From positions 1,972 to 65,971 of the forward strand of contig CAZSWK010000002.1 of NCBI GenBank assembly GCA_964610835.1: 64,000 nucleotides of DNA, written 5' to 3'. Below are positions 27,134 to 35,600 of this stretch, piece by piece. The DNA comes from an uncultured Anaerolineaceae bacterium. GTDB lineage: Bacteria > Chloroflexota > Limnocylindria > Limnocylindrales > CSP1-4. Numbering within the stretch: position 1 is the first letter of the stretch; each line of letters opens with the position of its first letter. The notes beneath the pieces are model-generated. The model searched no databases, had not been told where the DNA came from, and saw nothing but the letters and a program-made list of their open reading frames with translations. Both the position numbers and the translations under genes were made by a program.

Positions 27134-28462
<1,329 letters not shown>

Positions 28463-28480
28463 CTCGTCGCGTAGCGAAAG

Positions 28481-28504
28481 GAGCCGGGGCGAACGCCCCG
28501 GCTC
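28481..28504. terminator. perfect GC hairpin (gagccggggcg-aa-cgccccggctc) between convergent gltA and the zinc-ribbon gene; candidate bidirectional terminator
   Basis: 11-bp perfect inverted repeat read from sequence. There is no T-tract, as expected in high-GC genomes. Confidence 0.55.
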
Positions 28505-28529
28505 GTTGCACAATCGCGGTGTTTGACCG

Positions 28530-28880
28530 TCAGCTGGCGCCCGCCGCCTGGACCTCGCGGAAGCAATCGGAGCAGTAAACGGGTCGATCCATGCGTGGCT
28601 TGAAAGGCACCTGGGCGGCATTGCCACACTTCGAACAGATAACGGCAAAGTATTCGCGCTGAGGCCGGTAATCGCCGCGCTCGTAGCCGCGCGGGCCGCC
28701 GATCTCGCGCATGTCGTAGCCGCTCGACTCGCGCATGGCACGACGGGCCGCGCGACAGCTTGGGCAGCGCTTGGGATCCGATGCGAACCCCTTCTGGGCA
28801 TAGAACTCCTGGTCGGCCGCGGAGTGGACGAATTCCACGCCGCAGTCGGCACAGGTAAGGGTCCGATCCGTATAACTCAC
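28530..28880 (-). CDS. zinc-ribbon domain protein (two CxxC pairs twice)
   Basis: VSYTDRTLTCADCGVEF...KRCPSCRAA and ...VICSKCGNAAQ...VYCSDCF give two zinc-ribbon units. GTG start at about 28880 has GGAGG 9 nt upstream; the track ORF extends further but overlaps. Confidence 0.5.
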   Translation of the reverse strand: MSYTDRTLTCADCGVEFVHSAADQEFYAQKGFASDPKRCPSCRAARRAMRESSGYDMREIGGPRGYERGDYRPQREYFAVICSKCGNAAQVPFKPRMDRPVYCSDCFREVQAAGAS

Positions 28881-29237
28881 CTGGTTTGCCTCCCCTGGGC
28901 AGCGAACGTTGTGACCGTTGTTGCCGGATGCCCACCGAACTCCAGCTCCGAGCACGCTGAAGCCGTGCGTAGCGCTACGACGAGGAGCCGGGCGCCACGC
29001 GACCCAGGTGCTCTGCCGAGGTCCCTGAACTGGGGCGCACCGGTAACTGGCGCAAGGTTACCACCGGCGGCCGACCTGCCCAAGGCGCGCCCCGGCGGCC
29101 CACGCTCAATTTCCGCCTAGCCCAACCTTCCTATGTGTGGCGGCCCTGCAAGGGTGTCAGAATTCAGTGTGGCCTGTCGGCACCACTCTGGTCGGCGGGA
29201 GGTTCGTCAATCCATAGCGAGGGAGTCCACCGCGGCG

Positions 29238-30419
29238 ATGCCCCGCCTTCTGCACATGGCCGATGTTCACCTCGGTGCCCGTCACAGCGATCTCGGGCCG
29301 GCGGCGGCTGAGCAGCGCGAGCGCCAGTTCGCCGCCTTCGAGCGGGCCATCGAGCATGCGCTGGCGGAGCGCGTCGACCTGGTCCTGATAGCCGGCGACC
29401 TGTTCGACTCGAACAGCCAGCCGCCCCGCTCGGTCGAGCGGGCGGCCGCTCAGCTCGGCCGTCTCGTCCAGCGTCACATACCGACGGTTGTCATTCCCGG
29501 GACGCACGACAGCTACGAGCCGGGCTCCATCTATCGCGTCTTCGATCTGGCGGCGCTGGCCGGTGCGGAGGGAACCGATCTGCTGACCGTACTGACCGAC
29601 CAACAGCGCCTGGTGGAGTTCGAGGCGCTGGGCATAGCCGTCCACGGCTTTGTCTTCGCCACCAAGCGTGCGCCGGAAAGCCCACTGGCCGGTTTCACGA
29701 TCACTCGCGAGCCGGTCAGGAACAGCGCGATCATCTGGCACGTGGGCATGATCCACGGCTCGCTGGTGGTGCCCGGGCACGTCGACCAGGACGAGGTCGG
29801 ATTCACGGAGGGGGAGATCGCCGCGAGCGGCCTGGACTACCTGGCTCTTGGCCACTGGCACACGGCGCGTCAGGGCCGGGCCGGGCGCACGACCTGGGCT
29901 TACTCGGGTGCCCCGGAGCCGGTTGCGGTCGATCAGGACGGGGCCGGTCAGGTGCTGGTCGTCGCGCTCGAAGATGCCGAGGGACGGCGCACGGTGAGCG
30001 TTGCTACGCAGCCGGTGGGCCGGACCCATTTCCAGAAGCTCGAACTCGACGCCGCCACCATCGGCTCGCAGGCAGAGGTCGATGCCCAGTTGCGCAAGCT
30101 GGCGGATCCGGACAGGGTGCTCGACGTGCGCCTGGTGGGCGTCAAACCGGCAGGGCTGGACCTGAACACCGACGAACTTGAAAACCAGCTGCGCGGCTCG
30201 TTCCTGCGCGTGCGCGTGCGCGACGCCGCGGTGATGGCCTTGCCCGATGGCCCGATGCCGCCGGTGGACACGATCATCGGCTCGTTCGCCCGCGACCTGG
30301 AGGCGCGCATCAAGGATGCCGAGGGCCGCGGCGACACGGCCCGCGCGGCCGAGTTGCGCGAGGCACTCCACCTGGGGGCGTTGCTGCTCGACGATCCCAA
30401 CCGCGTGACGCTGGCCTAG
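29238..30419 (+). CDS. sbcD: DNA repair exonuclease SbcD/Mre11-family metallophosphoesterase
   Basis: MPRLLHMADVHLG, GDLFD, GTHD, GHWH motifs are present. The start is moved to internal MPRLL. Confidence 0.8.
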   Translation: MPRLLHMADVHLGARHSDLGPAAAEQRERQFAAFERAIEHALAERVDLVLIAGDLFDSNSQPPRSVERAAAQLGRLVQRHIPTVVIPGTHDSYEPGSIYRVFDLAALAGAEGTDLLTVLTDQQRLVEFEALGIAVHGFVFATKRAPESPLAGFTITREPVRNSAIIWHVGMIHGSLVVPGHVDQDEVGFTEGEIAASGLDYLALGHWHTARQGRAGRTTWAYSGAPEPVAVDQDGAGQVLVVALEDAEGRRTVSVATQPVGRTHFQKLELDAATIGSQAEVDAQLRKLADPDRVLDVRLVGVKPAGLDLNTDELENQLRGSFLRVRVRDAAVMALPDGPMPPVDTIIGSFARDLEARIKDAEGRGDTARAAELREALHLGALLLDDPNRVTLA

Positions 30420-30423
30420 AACG

Positions 30424-32673
30424 ATGCGTATCAGACACGTCCACCTCGAGAACTTCGCCCGCCACGAGTCGCTCGACCTCGACTTCGCGCCGGGCCTGAA
30501 CGTCGTGCGCGGCGCGAACGAGGCCGGCAAATCGACCGTCCAACGAGCCCTCGAAATGGGCCTCTTCCGGCGCCCGACGTCAACTGCGGAGGACGTCGAC
30601 CGGTTGCGCCCCTGGGCAGCGCAGGACAGCGCCCCGGTGGTGGCGATCGATTTCGAGGAGGACGGTGTCGAAGGCAGTCTGCGCAAGGTTTTCGCCGGCC
30701 AGCGCGGTACGGTCGAGATGCGGCTGGGCGACGAAGAGAAGGCCATGTCCGACCCGGCGCAGGTCGAACAGCAGGTGGCGCGCCTGACTGGCCTGCCGTC
30801 GGAGAAATTCTTCCAGGCCACGGCCAGCGTGCATCACCAGGAACTGACTGGCTTGAAGCAGGATGAGAACACCCTGCGTGACCGTCTGCAGCAGTCGATG
30901 AGCGGTGCCGATCGCGGCACGCGAGCTGCGCGGCGCAAGCTCGAGGACGCTGTCCACCGCTATCGGACGGAGGGCTCGAAGAATCCCGGCTATCTCAAGA
31001 GCATGCGCGCCGAGGTCGATCGGCTGCGGGTCGCGGTGGAGACCGGTGAGGCGGCGCTGGCCGCCCTGGCCACCGACCGCCAGGCGCTGTCGGAGGCCCG
31101 TGCCACGCGTGCCGGCCTCGATACGCGTCTCGCCCACGAACGCGCGGGGGCCGAGAAGTCCGAGCGAGCGGTCGAACTGACGGCGCGGGCAAACGACGCG
31201 TCGAGCAAGTACCTGGTCTACCGGCGCGCCGCCGAATTGCGGACCGAGATCGACAAGCTCAATGGCAGTCATCCGACGCCGATCCCGCTGGCCAGGCTGC
31301 GCGCCGCGGTTGACGACCTGCGCGACACCGAGTTCCGTCTATCAGAAATGCGCGCCGAACTGGCTGCCGAGCCCGACCTGTCCGGCTACGACGTGGCCAT
31401 CCCCACGCTGCGGTGGCGGCCCTGGGCAATCGGCGGGGCGGTCATGCTGGTCATCGGCCTGATCGGGCTCGTCGGTGGCGTGCTGCTTGACTCGCTGGCG
31501 GTCGGCGGCGTGGCGGCGCTGGCCTTTGCGCTGCTCGGCGTCGCCGGGTTGCTTTTCGCTGCTCGCGAGCGGCGACGGATTCATGATGTCCGGCTGCAGA
31601 ACGAGTTGCGTGAGTCAGAGATCGCGCGCCGTCTGCAGGGCCGCACCGAGCTGTCTGAGCAGGTTCGGCAGACAGAGCAGGAGCGTGCGGACAAGCTCGT
31701 TCCGCTCGAGGTCGAGGATGTGGCCGCGGCCGAGGCGCTGCTCGCCGCCGAGACCGAGCACGTGGCCCGGATCGATGCCCTGACGGCCGAGTTCCGTGGT
31801 CTGACGCGCGCCGAGCCGGGCGCCGAGAACGTCGATGAGCTGCGCGACCGTGCCGCCGCCGAGGCCGACGAGTGCCGGCACGCGCTCGCCGGCATGGGCG
31901 AGGTGGGACACGATCCCGAGCGCCATCTTGCCGGCCATCGTCTCGCGATCGAGCGCCTGACGCCCGAACGCGAAGCTGCGCTCCAGGCCGAGGCCCATGC
32001 CCAGGCGCGCGTCACGGCCAACGAAGTCGACGCCGAGCAGGTCGCGGCCGATACCGAGGCACTCAGCACGGCCCAGGAGCAGTACGTCGCAGCCGAACGG
32101 CGCCTGCGTATCTACGAACAGGTCCTCGCCGCGCTGGATGCCGCGGAGCAGGCGACCATGAAGAAGGCGGCACGTTTCCTCGAGCAGCGCATGGCCCAGG
32201 ACGTCGACCGGGTCACCGGCGGCCGCTATCGCCGACTGCGCGTCGACGAGGGGACGCTGACCTTCACCGTCTACTCGCCCGAACTCGACGACTGGGTCGA
32301 TGTCCGGCGCCTGTCGCAGGGCACGCTCGACCAGCTGTACCTGTGTGCCCGGCTGGGGATCGTCCGCCAGGTCACCGAACCTGCGAGTCCGCCGCTGGTG
32401 TTCGACGACCCGTTCGTCACTTTTGACGATGAGCGGGCTCTGCGGGCGGTGGCCCTGCTGCACGACATCGCCCGCGAGCATCAGGTGCTGCTGCTCACCA
32501 CCAGTGACCGCTACGACGATCACGCCGACAATGTGCTCGTCTTGCCCGCCCCGACTCAGCGCGATGAGCCGGAGCCCGGATCTCCTTCAACAACGACGGC
32601 GGCTGAAACGATCTCCATGTGGAGCAGCGCGCCGGTCAGCCGGACACCGGCCTCGACACGGAAGGGTCGCTGA
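30424..32673 (+). CDS. SbcC/Rad50-like ABC-type ATPase with central membrane-spanning hairpin
   Basis: Walker A (GANEAGKST) at the N-terminus, signature/Walker B/D-loop (LSQGTLDQLYL...LVFDDPFVTFD) at the C-terminus, and long Ala/Glu/Arg coiled coil between. The middle about 31425-31565 encodes two hydrophobic helices (AIGGAVMLVIGLIGLVGGVLL / VGGVAALAFALLGVAGLLFAA). No CxxC hook is visible. Confidence 0.75.
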   Translation: MRIRHVHLENFARHESLDLDFAPGLNVVRGANEAGKSTVQRALEMGLFRRPTSTAEDVDRLRPWAAQDSAPVVAIDFEEDGVEGSLRKVFAGQRGTVEMRLGDEEKAMSDPAQVEQQVARLTGLPSEKFFQATASVHHQELTGLKQDENTLRDRLQQSMSGADRGTRAARRKLEDAVHRYRTEGSKNPGYLKSMRAEVDRLRVAVETGEAALAALATDRQALSEARATRAGLDTRLAHERAGAEKSERAVELTARANDASSKYLVYRRAAELRTEIDKLNGSHPTPIPLARLRAAVDDLRDTEFRLSEMRAELAAEPDLSGYDVAIPTLRWRPWAIGGAVMLVIGLIGLVGGVLLDSLAVGGVAALAFALLGVAGLLFAARERRRIHDVRLQNELRESEIARRLQGRTELSEQVRQTEQERADKLVPLEVEDVAAAEALLAAETEHVARIDALTAEFRGLTRAEPGAENVDELRDRAAAEADECRHALAGMGEVGHDPERHLAGHRLAIERLTPEREAALQAEAHAQARVTANEVDAEQVAADTEALSTAQEQYVAAERRLRIYEQVLAALDAAEQATMKKAARFLEQRMAQDVDRVTGGRYRRLRVDEGTLTFTVYSPELDDWVDVRRLSQGTLDQLYLCARLGIVRQVTEPASPPLVFDDPFVTFDDERALRAVALLHDIAREHQVLLLTTSDRYDDHADNVLVLPAPTQRDEPEPGSPSTTTAAETISMWSSAPVSRTPASTRKGR

Positions 32674-33596
32674 CCGTCGGCCCAGTCTTTGGCCTGATAT
32701 CGGCCCTCAGCTGGGGCGCCGGCGATTTCTGCGGCGGGCTCCTCAGCCGGTACACGAGCGTCCTGGCCGCGATCATGGTCAGCCAGTCGCTGGGCTTGCT
32801 GCTGGCGCTCGGCCTGGTCATCGGCTCCGGTGAGCCGGCCCCTTCGAACGCCGCCATGGCGTGGGCTGTCGCCGCAGGCGCCTCCGGCGTGGCCGGGCTC
32901 GGCTTCTTCTATTTCGCACTGTCACGCGGCACGATGAGCGTCATCGCGCCGCTGGCGGCGCTCGTCGGCGCCGGGGTGCCCGTCCTGCTCACGATCGGCG
33001 GTGGCGAGGCGGCCGACACACCACGACTGGTCGGCATCGCCCTGGCGCTGGCCGCGGTGGTACTCATCTCGCTACCTGACCGGGCCACGAGTGCACACGA
33101 GCGGCGAGCCTGGCGCATCGACGTCAGCGAGCTGCCACTGGTGCTGTTCAGCGGCCTGGGCTTCGCCGGCTTCTTCCTGTTCATCGACCACGCGTCGGCG
33201 GGTGGCTCGATCTGGTGGCCGCAGATGGCCGTGCGCCTGACCGGCCTCGGCCTGACGGTGCTGTTCTTCACGCTGCTGCTCGCGGCTCGCCGCCGGCCGT
33301 CTGGCTGGCGTCAACAGGCGCGTGCCCTGCTGGGCATGAACCGGCTGCGCGCAGGTGGACGCGGCCTGCTGGCGGTCGCGCCGCTGTTCGTGATGGCTGG
33401 CGCGGGCGACCTGGGCGGCAACACCTTCTTCCTGTTCGCCGAACACGCCGACGCCTTCGCCGTGGCCGTCGTACTTTCTTCGCTCTACCCGGTCGTCACC
33501 GCGTTGCTGGCGGCCAGCTTCCTGCGCGAGCGGATGCGGCCCGTCCAGCTCCTGGGCGTGGCTCTCGCCGCGTGCGCCATCGCGCTACTGCACTAG
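32619..33596 (+). CDS. EamA/DMT-superfamily transporter
   Basis: About 10 hydrophobic helices in two EamA repeats. No in-frame ATG/GTG/TTG is seen right after the sbcC-like stop, so the start may be the ATG at 32619, giving a 55-nt overlap with the SbcC-like gene. Confidence 0.65.
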   Translation: MEQRAGQPDTGLDTEGSLTVGPVFGLISALSWGAGDFCGGLLSRYTSVLAAIMVSQSLGLLLALGLVIGSGEPAPSNAAMAWAVAAGASGVAGLGFFYFALSRGTMSVIAPLAALVGAGVPVLLTIGGGEAADTPRLVGIALALAAVVLISLPDRATSAHERRAWRIDVSELPLVLFSGLGFAGFFLFIDHASAGGSIWWPQMAVRLTGLGLTVLFFTLLLAARRRPSGWRQQARALLGMNRLRAGGRGLLAVAPLFVMAGAGDLGGNTFFLFAEHADAFAVAVVLSSLYPVVTALLAASFLRERMRPVQLLGVALAACAIALLH

Positions 33597-34366
33597 GCGC
33601 CGGCCGCCTCCCGGTCGATCAGCCACAGGGCGTTGCCCAGCAGCGCGCTCTGGACGGGCCACCGTCGCGGCTCGCGCTCTGGACCGAGCACACTGCGCAC
33701 TATTTCGGCCTTGCCTGGCCCGTTGGCCATCACGATGATCTGCCGTGCAACGGGCAGGAGGCGTGCCGCGAGCGTCACCCGCGGCAGGTGCGGCTCGACG
33801 TGCCGCGGTGCGGCAATGGACATTGCGATCGGTGCATCGGCTGCCAGCGCGGGGCTGTCCGGGAAGATCGACATCACGTGGCCGTCGGGCCCGATGCCGG
33901 CCAGGATCACGTCGAAGATCGGAACGCCGTCAGCGTCGAGCGGCAGGAGGCCTCTGATCTCGGCGGCATAGGCGGCAGCCGCCTGCGGTCCGGCGTCCGG
34001 CGCATCGGACGCCAGGTCGACCGGTACCGGGTGAACATTGGCCGCGTCGACGAGCGGGGCGGTGGCCCGCAGAAGCCGTTCGGCGAGGCCGGCATTCGAT
34101 TGTGGATCCGCGAGCGGCACGAGACGCTCATCGCCCCACCAGAGATGGACCCGTTGCCAGCTCAGCTGCGTGCGCCGCTCGGGCCGGGTCAGTTCGTGGA
34201 AGAACGGGACTGCGGTCGAGCCGCCGGTCAGCGCCAGGTGGACGGTCCGGCCCTGCGCGATGCCACGGGCGAGTACCGCGATGGTGCGGTCGGCGGCGCT
34301 CCGTGCCACGTCATCTGGGTCGGGCAGGATCCTCAACTCGGCAGGCGCCGCGTCGAGGTCAGCCAC
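33593..34366 (-). CDS. pgl: 6-phosphogluconolactonase
   Basis: C-terminal 257 aa of the track ORF match Pgl/DevB (HLALTGGST..., WGDERLVP..., GIGPDGH). GTG start at about 34366 overlaps the opcA stop; the upstream 100 codons of the track ORF are antisense read-through. Confidence 0.8.
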   Translation of the reverse strand: MADLDAAPAELRILPDPDDVARSAADRTIAVLARGIAQGRTVHLALTGGSTAVPFFHELTRPERRTQLSWQRVHLWWGDERLVPLADPQSNAGLAERLLRATAPLVDAANVHPVPVDLASDAPDAGPQAAAAYAAEIRGLLPLDADGVPIFDVILAGIGPDGHVMSIFPDSPALAADAPIAMSIAAPRHVEPHLPRVTLAARLLPVARQIIVMANGPGKAEIVRSVLGPEREPRRWPVQSALLGNALWLIDREAAGA

Positions 34367-35600
34367 CGATGAGACGCACGGCGCGCACCAGGGCTGCCTC
34401 GAAGGCACGATCGATCCCGGGCCGCTCGAGTGCCTCGGCGATGAACGGCGTTTCCTCGAAGGGCTCGAGCCGCCCCGCCCGGCGCGCGACTTGAGCGCCG
34501 TTCCAGTCGGCGGTCGCGAGCAGGTGATCGGCCTGGCGCGTGATGCGCGCCCGGATCGATGACCGCGGCCGCTCGGTGTCCACCTCAACGCGGACCAGCG
34601 ATCCGGCACCACGTTGCGCTCCGTCGAGTGTCTGGTGCACCGGTCGCAGCTCGACCTTGATCTCGCGCCGCCCATCACGGAAGGCGCCGACCAGCCCCTC
34701 GTCGTCCTGCTGCTCGCTCAGCGGACGCGCCACGTCCCAGCCGAGTCGGGATGCCAGCCAGCCGCAGAAGTAGGCGGCCTTGGAGATGCGGAAGGTGCTT
34801 GTCGGCCGTGAGACGTCGACACGCACGCTGCGGATATGGCGCAACTCGCGCACCAGCAGAGGATGGTCGAACAGCCCCGCCATCAGCTCGCGCCACAGGG
34901 TGAGCCGTAGCCAGCCGATGTCGGCCACCGACACACCGTCGGACACGACGGTTGCCAGGCCTGCCATGCGGCGGCCGCCGTCCTCGTGGAACGTGCCCGA
35001 GTCGACCAGCAGACGGTCGGCGCTGCCCACGACCTCGTTGAACAGGCGCGAGCCGAAAGGCGGATCGTCGGGCCACCACAGCACGACCGGCAGATCGTGG
35101 ATCAACAGCGGGGTGATCACGCGCGAGAGGTGCTGGGAAAGTTCGCCGCCGGTGCGCACCACGATCTGTTCGGTGCACATCTCGGCGTCGGTGCGCTCCG
35201 AGAGCTTGCACTCTGCGTAGATGTCAGCGTCCATCCTGGCCGGCCCGTCGAAATCGCCGGGCGAGACGACCACGGCTCGCGATGGATGCCGCTGATGGAG
35301 TGCCTCGACGGCCGCCAGGGCACGCTCGGCCGTCTCGGGGCGGGGAGCGATGACGACCAGCGTGAGGACGCTCGTGCGCATTCGCACCCTTACCGATTGG
35401 TGCGTGTCCAGCCGTGCCGCCAGCCGCGGGTCACCCAGCGCCGCGCCACGTGTCTCTTCGGACAGCTCGGCCCCCGCAGCCTCCTCGGCGGCCGAGCTCC
35501 ATACCTGGCCGAGCTCGTCGACGCACTGACGAATGCTGTGCGCCCGCACGTGCCAGCGGCTGGCCGAATCTTCGAGAGCGGGCCCGGTCGTGTCGGTCAT
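34359..35600 (-). CDS. opcA: glucose-6-phosphate dehydrogenase assembly protein OpcA
   Basis: 413 aa located directly downstream of zwf, with OpcA-like composition (LVVIAPRPETAERALAAVEAL...). Confidence 0.8.
   Translation of the reverse strand: MTDTTGPALEDSASRWHVRAHSIRQCVDELGQVWSSAAEEAAGAELSEETRGAALGDPRLAARLDTHQSVRVRMRTSVLTLVVIAPRPETAERALAAVEALHQRHPSRAVVVSPGDFDGPARMDADIYAECKLSERTDAEMCTEQIVVRTGGELSQHLSRVITPLLIHDLPVVLWWPDDPPFGSRLFNEVVGSADRLLVDSGTFHEDGGRRMAGLATVVSDGVSVADIGWLRLTLWRELMAGLFDHPLLVRELRHIRSVRVDVSRPTSTFRISKAAYFCGWLASRLGWDVARPLSEQQDDEGLVGAFRDGRREIKVELRPVHQTLDGAQRGAGSLVRVEVDTERPRSSIRARITRQADHLLATADWNGAQVARRAGRLEPFEETPFIAEALERPGIDRAFEAALVRAVRLIGG

Follow-up and report, generated by a model that had tools for sequence, protein, structure and literature searches.

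A 64,000-nucleotide (nt) stretch of an uncultured Anaerolineaceae genome (Chloroflexota, Limnocylindria; contig CAZSWK010000002.1, positions 1,972 to 65,971), referred to here as the window, encodes an Mre11/SbcD-type nuclease directly upstream of a Rad50-like ATPase of 749 amino acids (aa) that has no zinc hook and carries a predicted transmembrane hairpin at the apex of its helical arm. The pair falls in the YhaO/YhaN family, a paralogous branch of the Mre11-Rad50/SbcCD machines, in which Bacillus subtilis YhaN has been named SbcE and YhaO SbcF (Krishnamurthy et al. 2009, PMC2811018). Taken as a whole, the reading that the pair is a member of this family, that its apex hairpin serves as a membrane anchor and that it clamps DNA near the membrane has, in our judgement, a probability of roughly 0.75. 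The apex hairpin is a trait of the whole family and is neither specific to the window nor new. The window pair extends SbcE/SbcF to the Limnocylindria in a short-arm form of ~750 aa and is not a new type of machine.

The ATPase head and the apex hairpin

The two ends of the ATPase carry the split ATP-binding cassette (ABC) motifs that a preliminary description of this DNA had reported, with Walker A, signature and Walker B beginning at aa 30, 630 and 658, and the head matches Rad50 in a profile comparison with PDB sequences (E = 1e-14). In Walker A, residues G30, N32, E33, G35, K36 and T38 are invariant in 39 sequences; the column statistics given below come from a 39-sequence alignment, and the AlphaFold2 (AF2) model was built from 39 homologues. 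The protein is recognised by Pfam AAA_27 (PF13514; 36.6 bits, cutoff 22) and AAA_23 (44.4 bits, cutoff 27), and scores far below the cutoffs of all NCBIfam Rad50 equivalog models. The AF2 model has a mean predicted local distance difference test score (pLDDT) of 78.7 and builds the head from the N- and C-terminal segments. Its best Foldseek matches in the PDB are the Rad50 chains of the Chaetomium Mre11-Rad50-Nbs1 complex (7zr1, E = 1e-13), followed by other SMC-type proteins.

Two catalytic positions of the head are altered. When the ATPase is aligned with Pyrococcus furiosus Rad50, at a weak E-value and with the motifs in register, the catalytic Glu corresponds to D662 and the H-loop His to T693. 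The H-loop position is Cys in a Bacillaceae relative (L038) and His in a plasmid-borne relative that has no hairpin (from pHSL3, described below). The Asp pair in Walker B and the Thr in place of the H-loop His suggest a slowly hydrolysing, switch-like ATPase.

Only two cysteines, at 484 and 641, are present in the ATPase and there is no CxxC, in agreement with the preliminary description. That description had also placed two hydrophobic helices with a short turn at mid-length, at about 31425-31565; the segment we measured spans 31426-31563, and the AF2 model agrees. The hairpin comprises 46 residues, with a first hydrophobic helix at aa 335-355, a turn of D356 and S357, and a second helix at aa 358-380; AF2 places the helices at 332-354 and 358-380, between low-confidence linkers at 321-328 and 393-400. 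The Kyte-Doolittle mean over 19 residues is at least 1.6 in 33 consecutive sliding windows centred on aa 341-373, whereas the longest hydrophobic run in 2000 composition-preserving shuffles was 16. The helices themselves average 2.1-2.3, and D356 is the sole charged residue among the 46. R330, W331, R332 and W334 precede the hairpin and R381 and R383-R385 follow it, and the helices contain the small-xxx-small motifs AIGGA, GLVGG, GGVAA and ALAFA.

The conservation pattern of this region is distinctive. Mean hydropathy in the alignment is 2.2 for the hairpin columns against -0.3 to -1.4 for the flanks, and charged residues make up 1-2% of the hairpin against 25-47% of the flanking linkers, arms and head. 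Column identity is 0.41-0.43 in the hairpin and 0.71-0.82 in the flanks. Because hydrophobicity is kept without residue identity, the helices have membrane-spanning length and basic and aromatic residues lie at both ends, we read the segment as transmembrane. Sequence and model together argue strongly for lipid-facing transmembrane helices, of which this pattern is typical, and not for a specific amphipathic interface. The low charge and the identity below that of the flanks likewise do not bear out a buried amphipathic coiled coil. Both ends of the hairpin must be cytoplasmic, since both lead to the ATPase head. Under the positive-inside rule, basic residues mark the cytoplasmic side of membrane helices, and the Arg clusters flanking the hairpin fit this topology. 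The earlier proposal that a hairpin stands where the hook would be, implying membrane tethering, is thus supported in silico by hydropathy, conservation and flanking charges.

Distribution of the hairpin and absence of the hook

To follow the hairpin through the family we used two sets of homologues. The close set comprises 120 listed homologues of the ATPase (57-91% identity), out of 423 homologues found overall, some of which bear the JGI names YhaN or SbcCD ATPase. For the distant set, 1.84 billion cluster representatives were searched exhaustively with HMMER, giving 325 matches at E <= 1e-30 and 2986 at E <= 1e-10; from the 150 best of these representatives we took the 97 that are full-length, with 24-54% identity to the window ATPase. 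The distant matches are dominated by a subgroup of ~700-750 aa that includes the window ATPase. Separately, genomes were scanned with conserved peptide patterns at one genome per species, and the loci of relatives are numbered with the prefix L. The scan returned 34 Chloroflexota loci, one each in Armatimonadetes, Oscillospiraceae and Acetobacteraceae, and 10 in Bacillaceae/Carnobacteriaceae.

The central hydrophobic segment occurs in 120 of 120 close homologues (median length 48 residues) and in 94 of 97 distant ones, so that the hairpin is kept in 214 of 217. Two of the three remaining proteins still have a hydrophobic segment, one being N-terminally truncated and the other just under the threshold. 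Across homologues the hydrophobic stretch measures ~46-55 aa. It is also found, without CxxC, in the Armatimonadetes, Oscillospiraceae and Bacillaceae proteins, in most of them as a double segment; among the proteins of loci L037-L047, 10 of 11 have it at mid-length, mostly double. CxxC occurs in 0 of the 217 homologues, and none of them therefore shows the canonical hook that would have spoken against the preliminary description. A frameshift concealing a CxxC was ruled out as well: the open reading frame (ORF) is intact, a homologue of 749 aa with 91% identity is collinear with it, and CxxC is found in no relative.

The partner nuclease

The gene upstream of the ATPase encodes a phosphoesterase (Pfam Metallophos, 52.3 bits) whose PDB sequence matches are Mre11 and SbcD. 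Its best named matches are the SbcD and Mre11 equivalog models, all below their curated cutoffs (TIGR00619 sbcd, 67.4 bits against 77.65; Mre11 models, E = 1e-17). The nuclease contains the motifs DVHLG, GDLFD and GHWH as well as the His of motif IV. At motif III it has GTHD (in VVIPGTHDSYE) where Mre11 and SbcD have GNHD, with Thr in every Limnocylindria copy examined, and the Asn of GNHD is retained in the YhaO-like copies of Armatimonadetes, Oscillospiraceae, Bacillaceae and Acetobacteraceae. In Mre11, this Asn is a metal ligand.

The reading frame of the nuclease is open from an ATG at 29133 (428 aa). Since the Metallophos match starts at residue 38 and, for most homologues, nothing aligns upstream of it, the start is probably the ATG at 29238 (MPRLLHMADVHLG) and not 29133, and the 35-codon extension at 29133-29237 is probably untranslated. 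This N-terminal extension aligns in the closest relatives only. The nuclease gene ends with a TAG at 30417-30419 and the ATPase gene begins with the ATG at 30424. The earlier placement of an SbcD gene directly upstream therefore stands, and the overlap of a few base pairs claimed for it does not, as a gap of 4 nt separates the genes.

A Metallophos gene lies directly upstream of the ATPase gene in all Limnocylindria loci and in all of L035-L047 except L046, where tblastn gave no match. The same holds for the three contigs, of four with 24-29%-identical representatives, in which the upstream gene was looked up (L049, L050, L052). We treat the unit as a two-gene module of nuclease and ATPase, and the pairing is family-wide. 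Coordinates of the module, its parts and its neighbours are given in Table 1.

Table 1 Features of the nuclease-ATPase module and its flanking genes (positions in the window)
Feature	Position	Strand	Basis
Double treble-clef zinc-finger protein, 141 aa, divergent	28530..28955	-	PF13451 72 bits, PF23477 62 bits, TIGR04272
YhaO/SbcF-like Mre11/SbcD-family phosphoesterase	29238..30419	+	Pfam, NCBIfam, PDB matches, motifs
YhaN/SbcE-like SMC/Rad50-type ABC ATPase, 749 aa	30424..32673	+	Pfam, profile, AF2, Foldseek
Walker A / P-loop GANEAGKST, aa 30-38	30511..30537	+	Invariant residues in 39 sequences
N-terminal coiled-coil arm, aa 190-315	30991..31368	+	AF2 helices 190-281, 289-315, pLDDT 86-96
Predicted transmembrane helical hairpin at apex, aa 335-380	31426..31563	+	Hydropathy, AF2, conservation
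C-terminal helical arm, aa 405-597	31636..32214	+	AF2 helices 405-428, 433-461, 470-490, 498-532, 537-597
ABC signature LSQGTLDQL, aa 630-638, family-specific	32311..32337	+	Motif common to Bacillaceae YhaN-type proteins
Walker B / D-loop LVFDDPFVTFD, aa 658-668, DD not DE	32395..32427	+	D661, D662 invariant
EamA-family permease, 325 aa	32619..33596	+	Pfam EamA 55.7 bits

Relationship to SbcE/SbcF and to other Rad50-type machines

Names given to relatives lead to the YhaN family: a 66%-identical relative is called 'uncharacterized protein YhaN' by JGI, and more distant plasmid-borne relatives are 'YhaN family protein' in NCBI. The pattern LSQGTLD[QA]L recovered ten Bacillaceae/Carnobacteriaceae proteins in the genome scan. 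The window ATPase and Bacillaceae proteins of 948-985 aa have in common both the signature LSQGTLDQL and a Walker B/D-loop of the form hhhDD-F-V-x-FD. By BLASTP, the window ATPase and the L038 protein are 30% identical over the C-terminal head (E = 1e-16) and 35% over the P-loop region, and hhalign of the Limnocylindria and Bacillaceae profiles gives a probability of 99.1 (E = 4e-19) over the C-terminal head only. Homology of the central domain to that of the Bacillaceae proteins is judged by position and composition, not by alignment. The L038 locus, from Virgibacillus, contains in order an ABC-2 permease gene, a 410-aa Metallophos gene, a 985-aa AAA_27 gene (74.9 bits), a small ORF and a gene with HD and OB-fold domains, which we take to be the order yhaP-yhaO-yhaN-yhaM of B. 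subtilis. Pfam, the JGI and NCBI names, the shared motifs and this gene order together link the ATPase to B. subtilis YhaN.

In B. subtilis, SbcE lacks the CxxC of SbcC and Rad50 and has a unique central domain that is conserved in all homologues, rich in hydrophobic residues in its first half and insoluble when expressed (PMC2811018). Yeast two-hybrid assays show an interaction of SbcE with SbcF. SbcE also contributes to double-strand-break repair and transformation, the latter being mildly lowered when sbcE is lost; in competent cells it gathers, dependent on ComK, at the pole that houses the DNA-uptake machinery of the membrane (PMC2811018). In a later comparative study SbcEF was still described as poorly characterised (PMC6452273). 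In Staphylococcus haemolyticus, YhaN was classed as 'Membrane' by prediction and was recovered by surface shaving (PMC7137321). Our literature searches found no publication on a membrane-anchored Rad50-like or SMC-like nuclease complex, and none that treats the SbcE central domain as a transmembrane replacement of the zinc hook.

The window pair resembles B. subtilis SbcE/SbcF in having an SMC-like ATPase beside an SbcD-like nuclease, an AAA_27 N-terminal domain and a hydrophobic central domain, and in lacking CxxC. The signature and the Asp pair of Walker B are likenesses seen in the Bacillaceae proteins of matching gene order. The ATPase is, however, ~200 residues shorter than those proteins, and its arms of only ~126 and ~193 residues contrast with the ~300-residue heptad regions of the 106-kDa SbcE. 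Identity is ~30% (to the Bacillaceae proteins) and confined to the head, the host belongs to the Chloroflexota rather than the Firmicutes, the nuclease has GTHD in place of GNHD, and no yhaM-like or ABC-transporter gene is adjacent.

With Escherichia coli SbcCD and with archaeal and eukaryotic Mre11-Rad50, the pair has in common the two-gene module, the Rad50-type head and a helical arm that folds back, and the nuclease has Mre11-family phosphoesterase motifs with an altered motif III. Unlike these systems, the ATPase has a predicted transmembrane hairpin and no zinc hook at the apex, LSQGT rather than LSGGE, DD rather than DE, and Thr for the H-loop His; the two proteins lie below every NCBIfam equivalog cutoff for SbcD, Mre11 and Rad50.

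A further branch consists of proteobacterial proteins annotated as 'YhaN family protein'. These resemble the window ATPase in the head motif region, where the C-terminal heads are 31-40% identical, in lacking CxxC and in the 'DNA repair exonuclease' gene directly upstream. They differ in having no hairpin (maximum 19-residue Kyte-Doolittle mean 1.2-1.4) and in being ~400 residues longer, and the copy from pHSL3 differs also in the His at its H-loop position. Examples of these hairpin-less proteins of ~1150 aa are encoded at L048 2953-6396 (Tardibacter plasmid pHSL3) and L042 2884-6357 (Tanticharoenia). The pHSL3 copy has a Phd/YefM antitoxin gene on one side and Tn3/IS transposases on the other.

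Proposed mechanism and alternative roles of the hairpin

As in Rad50, the chain of the ATPase doubles back, with the N-terminal and C-terminal halves making up one ABC head and the intervening helices the arm. The arm ends not in a CxxC hook but in two hydrophobic helices of ~21-23 residues joined by a two-residue turn. We propose that this hairpin inserts into the cytoplasmic membrane with both ends cytoplasmic, a topology suggested by the Arg clusters on its two flanks. With the apex fixed to the membrane, the head and its bound SbcD-like nuclease would hang up to ~19 nm into the cytoplasm, taking the 126 residues of the shorter arm at 0.15 nm each. ATP-driven engagement of the heads could then clamp DNA ends or structures near the membrane, where the nuclease would process them. 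By analogy with B. subtilis SbcE, the module may have a role in DNA repair and transformation.

The hairpins of two protomers may also pair in the bilayer through their small-xxx-small motifs, replacing dimerisation through the hook. A more far-reaching version holds that such pairing is the replacement of the hook and keeps the ring closed at the membrane, that the machine acts only on DNA located there (such as DNA that is coming in or being translocated, or chromosomal ends attached to the membrane), and that its altered chemistry (the Asp pair of Walker B, the missing H-loop His and, in this lineage, GTHD in the nuclease) makes it a slow, switch-like clamp and not a fast-cycling ATPase. 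We put this combination forward tentatively, as somewhat less than an even chance.

Several observations weigh against the proposed reading. The assignment, strong as it appears, is drawn entirely from hydropathy, the conservation pattern, flanking charges and the AF2 model, whose confidence in the hairpin is moderate (pLDDT ~60-68). The arms are unequal, 126 against 193 residues, the C-terminal one being ~67 residues longer and broken into five helices. Because of this inequality and the fivefold split, the arm is probably, on the AF2 model, not a simple two-stranded antiparallel coil throughout, unlike that of Rad50. SbcE-YFP in B. subtilis was described as discrete mobile foci on nucleoids and at the poles, not as a membrane signal (PMC2811018). 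Since the ~1150-aa proteobacterial proteins have no hairpin, membrane anchoring is not obligatory in the wider YhaN family. Finally, the ATPase lacks the catalytic Glu and the H-loop His and the nuclease carries GTHD, so both activities may be weak or altered.

The mobility of those foci, which move from pole to pole within minutes (PMC2811018), favours a different view of the same segment, in which it is a soluble hydrophobic core for dimerisation or oligomerisation, such as a four-helix bundle of two apices, that replaces the hook or an SMC hinge in a nucleoid-associated complex. The insolubility of the isolated SbcE central domain fits any exposed hydrophobic surface (PMC2811018), and small-xxx-small motifs favour tight helix-helix packing, although they are equally typical of packing inside membranes. 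Yet 46 residues with so little charge, and with identity so far below that of the flanks, show a lipid-facing pattern; the helices, at 21-23 residues, are long enough to span a membrane and are bounded on both sides by Arg clusters and Trp, and surface shaving recovered the staphylococcal protein, which was classed as membrane (PMC7137321). We therefore regard a soluble core as unlikely, and retain the membrane anchor as our reading of the hairpin.

Genomic neighbourhood

Four ORFs fill positions 28530-33596 of the window, which has a G+C content of ~68% and is most closely related to metagenome-assembled genomes that carry the labels Chloroflexota or Candidatus Limnocylindrales. The flanking genes are as the preliminary description had them. 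The divergent upstream gene encodes two treble-clef domains (PF13451 and PF23477), corresponding to the double zinc ribbon described earlier, and the EamA gene lies directly downstream of the ATPase gene and overlaps it. The only canonical start of the EamA gene is the GTG at 32619, with no other ATG, GTG or TTG before the domain, and the overlap with the 3' end of the ATPase gene amounts to 55 nt (32619-32673). An overlap is found also in the closest relatives (L001, L022 and L031), and more distant relatives have a spacing of 100-170 nt between the two genes. EamA and the pair may share a transcript in Limnocylindria. Scanning positions 28400-33900 for promoters and terminators was uninformative: nothing promoter-like turned up, and the three terminator-like sites, where chance alone would give 1.8, are all intragenic.

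The zinc-finger and EamA genes flank the pair in most Limnocylindria. EamA is downstream in nearly all loci of the class and is missing in a 44%-identity branch (L025, L032); the contig of L024 stops just past the ATPase gene, so that the presence of EamA is not visible there. Identity of the zinc-finger protein across Limnocylindria loci is 76-95%, and at most of them the protein is more conserved than its neighbours. Conserved synteny with these two genes holds within the Limnocylindria and fails in other phyla, where only the nuclease-ATPase pair recurs: neither gene stands beside the pair in Armatimonadetes, Oscillospiraceae, Bacillaceae or four metagenomic relatives.

Adjacency in nearly all Limnocylindria loci, together with the overlap of the EamA and ATPase genes here and in the three closest relatives, could be taken to mean that zinc-ribbon protein, SbcD, ATPase and EamA form one four-gene membrane complex that includes a transporter. 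The whole 10-kb neighbourhood from P5C dehydrogenase to zwf, including citrate synthase and zwf-opcA-pgl, is however collinear across the class, and for this reason the adjacency of the zinc-finger and EamA genes is uninformative. Given also the branch without EamA and the absence of both genes beside the pair in the other groups, a complex of this kind is very improbable. A functional link of the pair to either gene was dropped, being conserved in one syntenic lineage only.

Further downstream, the longest ORFs of a 6-phosphogluconolactonase-like gene (33593-34678, minus strand) and an OpcA-like gene (34359-35600, minus strand) overlap by ~320 nt, and the overlap recurs in tblastn matches at many related loci. 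The probable cause is an over-extended start, in high-GC sequence that is poor in stop codons. Both names are given by sequence resemblance and the zwf neighbourhood.

The head of the ATPase also brings defence systems into consideration. In PADLOC, Lamassu LmuB matches weakly over the full length (50.7 bits, E = 4e-14) and PtuA and GajA match in the N-terminal part, and the model resembles in fold (9hqx_B) the SMC-like defence ATPases, with an SMC-like head and a short coiled coil. A Lamassu-like role, in which the pair would mainly act against plasmids and phages by destroying DNA entering at the membrane, would accord with three further observations. Hairpin-less YhaN family proteins with a DNA repair exonuclease occur on plasmids of sphingomonads, with a toxin-antitoxin gene on one side and transposases on the other; the DNA-uptake pole recruits SbcE (PMC2811018); and SbcEF is reported to be anti-correlated with CRISPR type I-B in Firmicutes (PMC6452273).

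The ATPase matches are, however, those expected from any SMC-like head, and PADLOC found no match for the nuclease, the zinc-finger protein or the EamA permease. LmuB is not known to have a transmembrane hairpin. The pair differs from Lamassu in having no LmuA or LmuC partner, and thus no LmuA-like effector, in its Mre11-type nuclease partner and in its housekeeping context. In Limnocylindria this context is the class-wide collinear region, and the neighbours of distant members are also housekeeping genes (ftsK, rodZ, lon and spoIID-type genes) rather than defence islands. Moreover, loss of sbcE mildly lowers transformation instead of raising it (PMC2811018). A mainly defensive role is accordingly quite unlikely, and we rejected filing the pair as a defence system, PADLOC having given only generic SMC-head matches.

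Implications

The window itself adds little beyond the extension of the family to the Limnocylindria, and the family-wide result is the more useful one. Nearly all members outside the long proteobacterial branch combine an Mre11-type nuclease with an apparent two-helix membrane anchor in place of the hook, and the only functional study that we found, from 2009, left the hydrophobic and insoluble central domain unexplained (PMC2811018). The most interesting question concerns the family as a whole, namely whether the apex hairpin is a membrane anchor that has taken over the role of the zinc hook. If membrane anchoring is true, the family would consist of membrane-fixed machines for processing DNA ends, with a bearing on how bacteria handle DNA that enters or lies at the envelope, and it would serve as a natural experiment on the need for the Rad50 hook.

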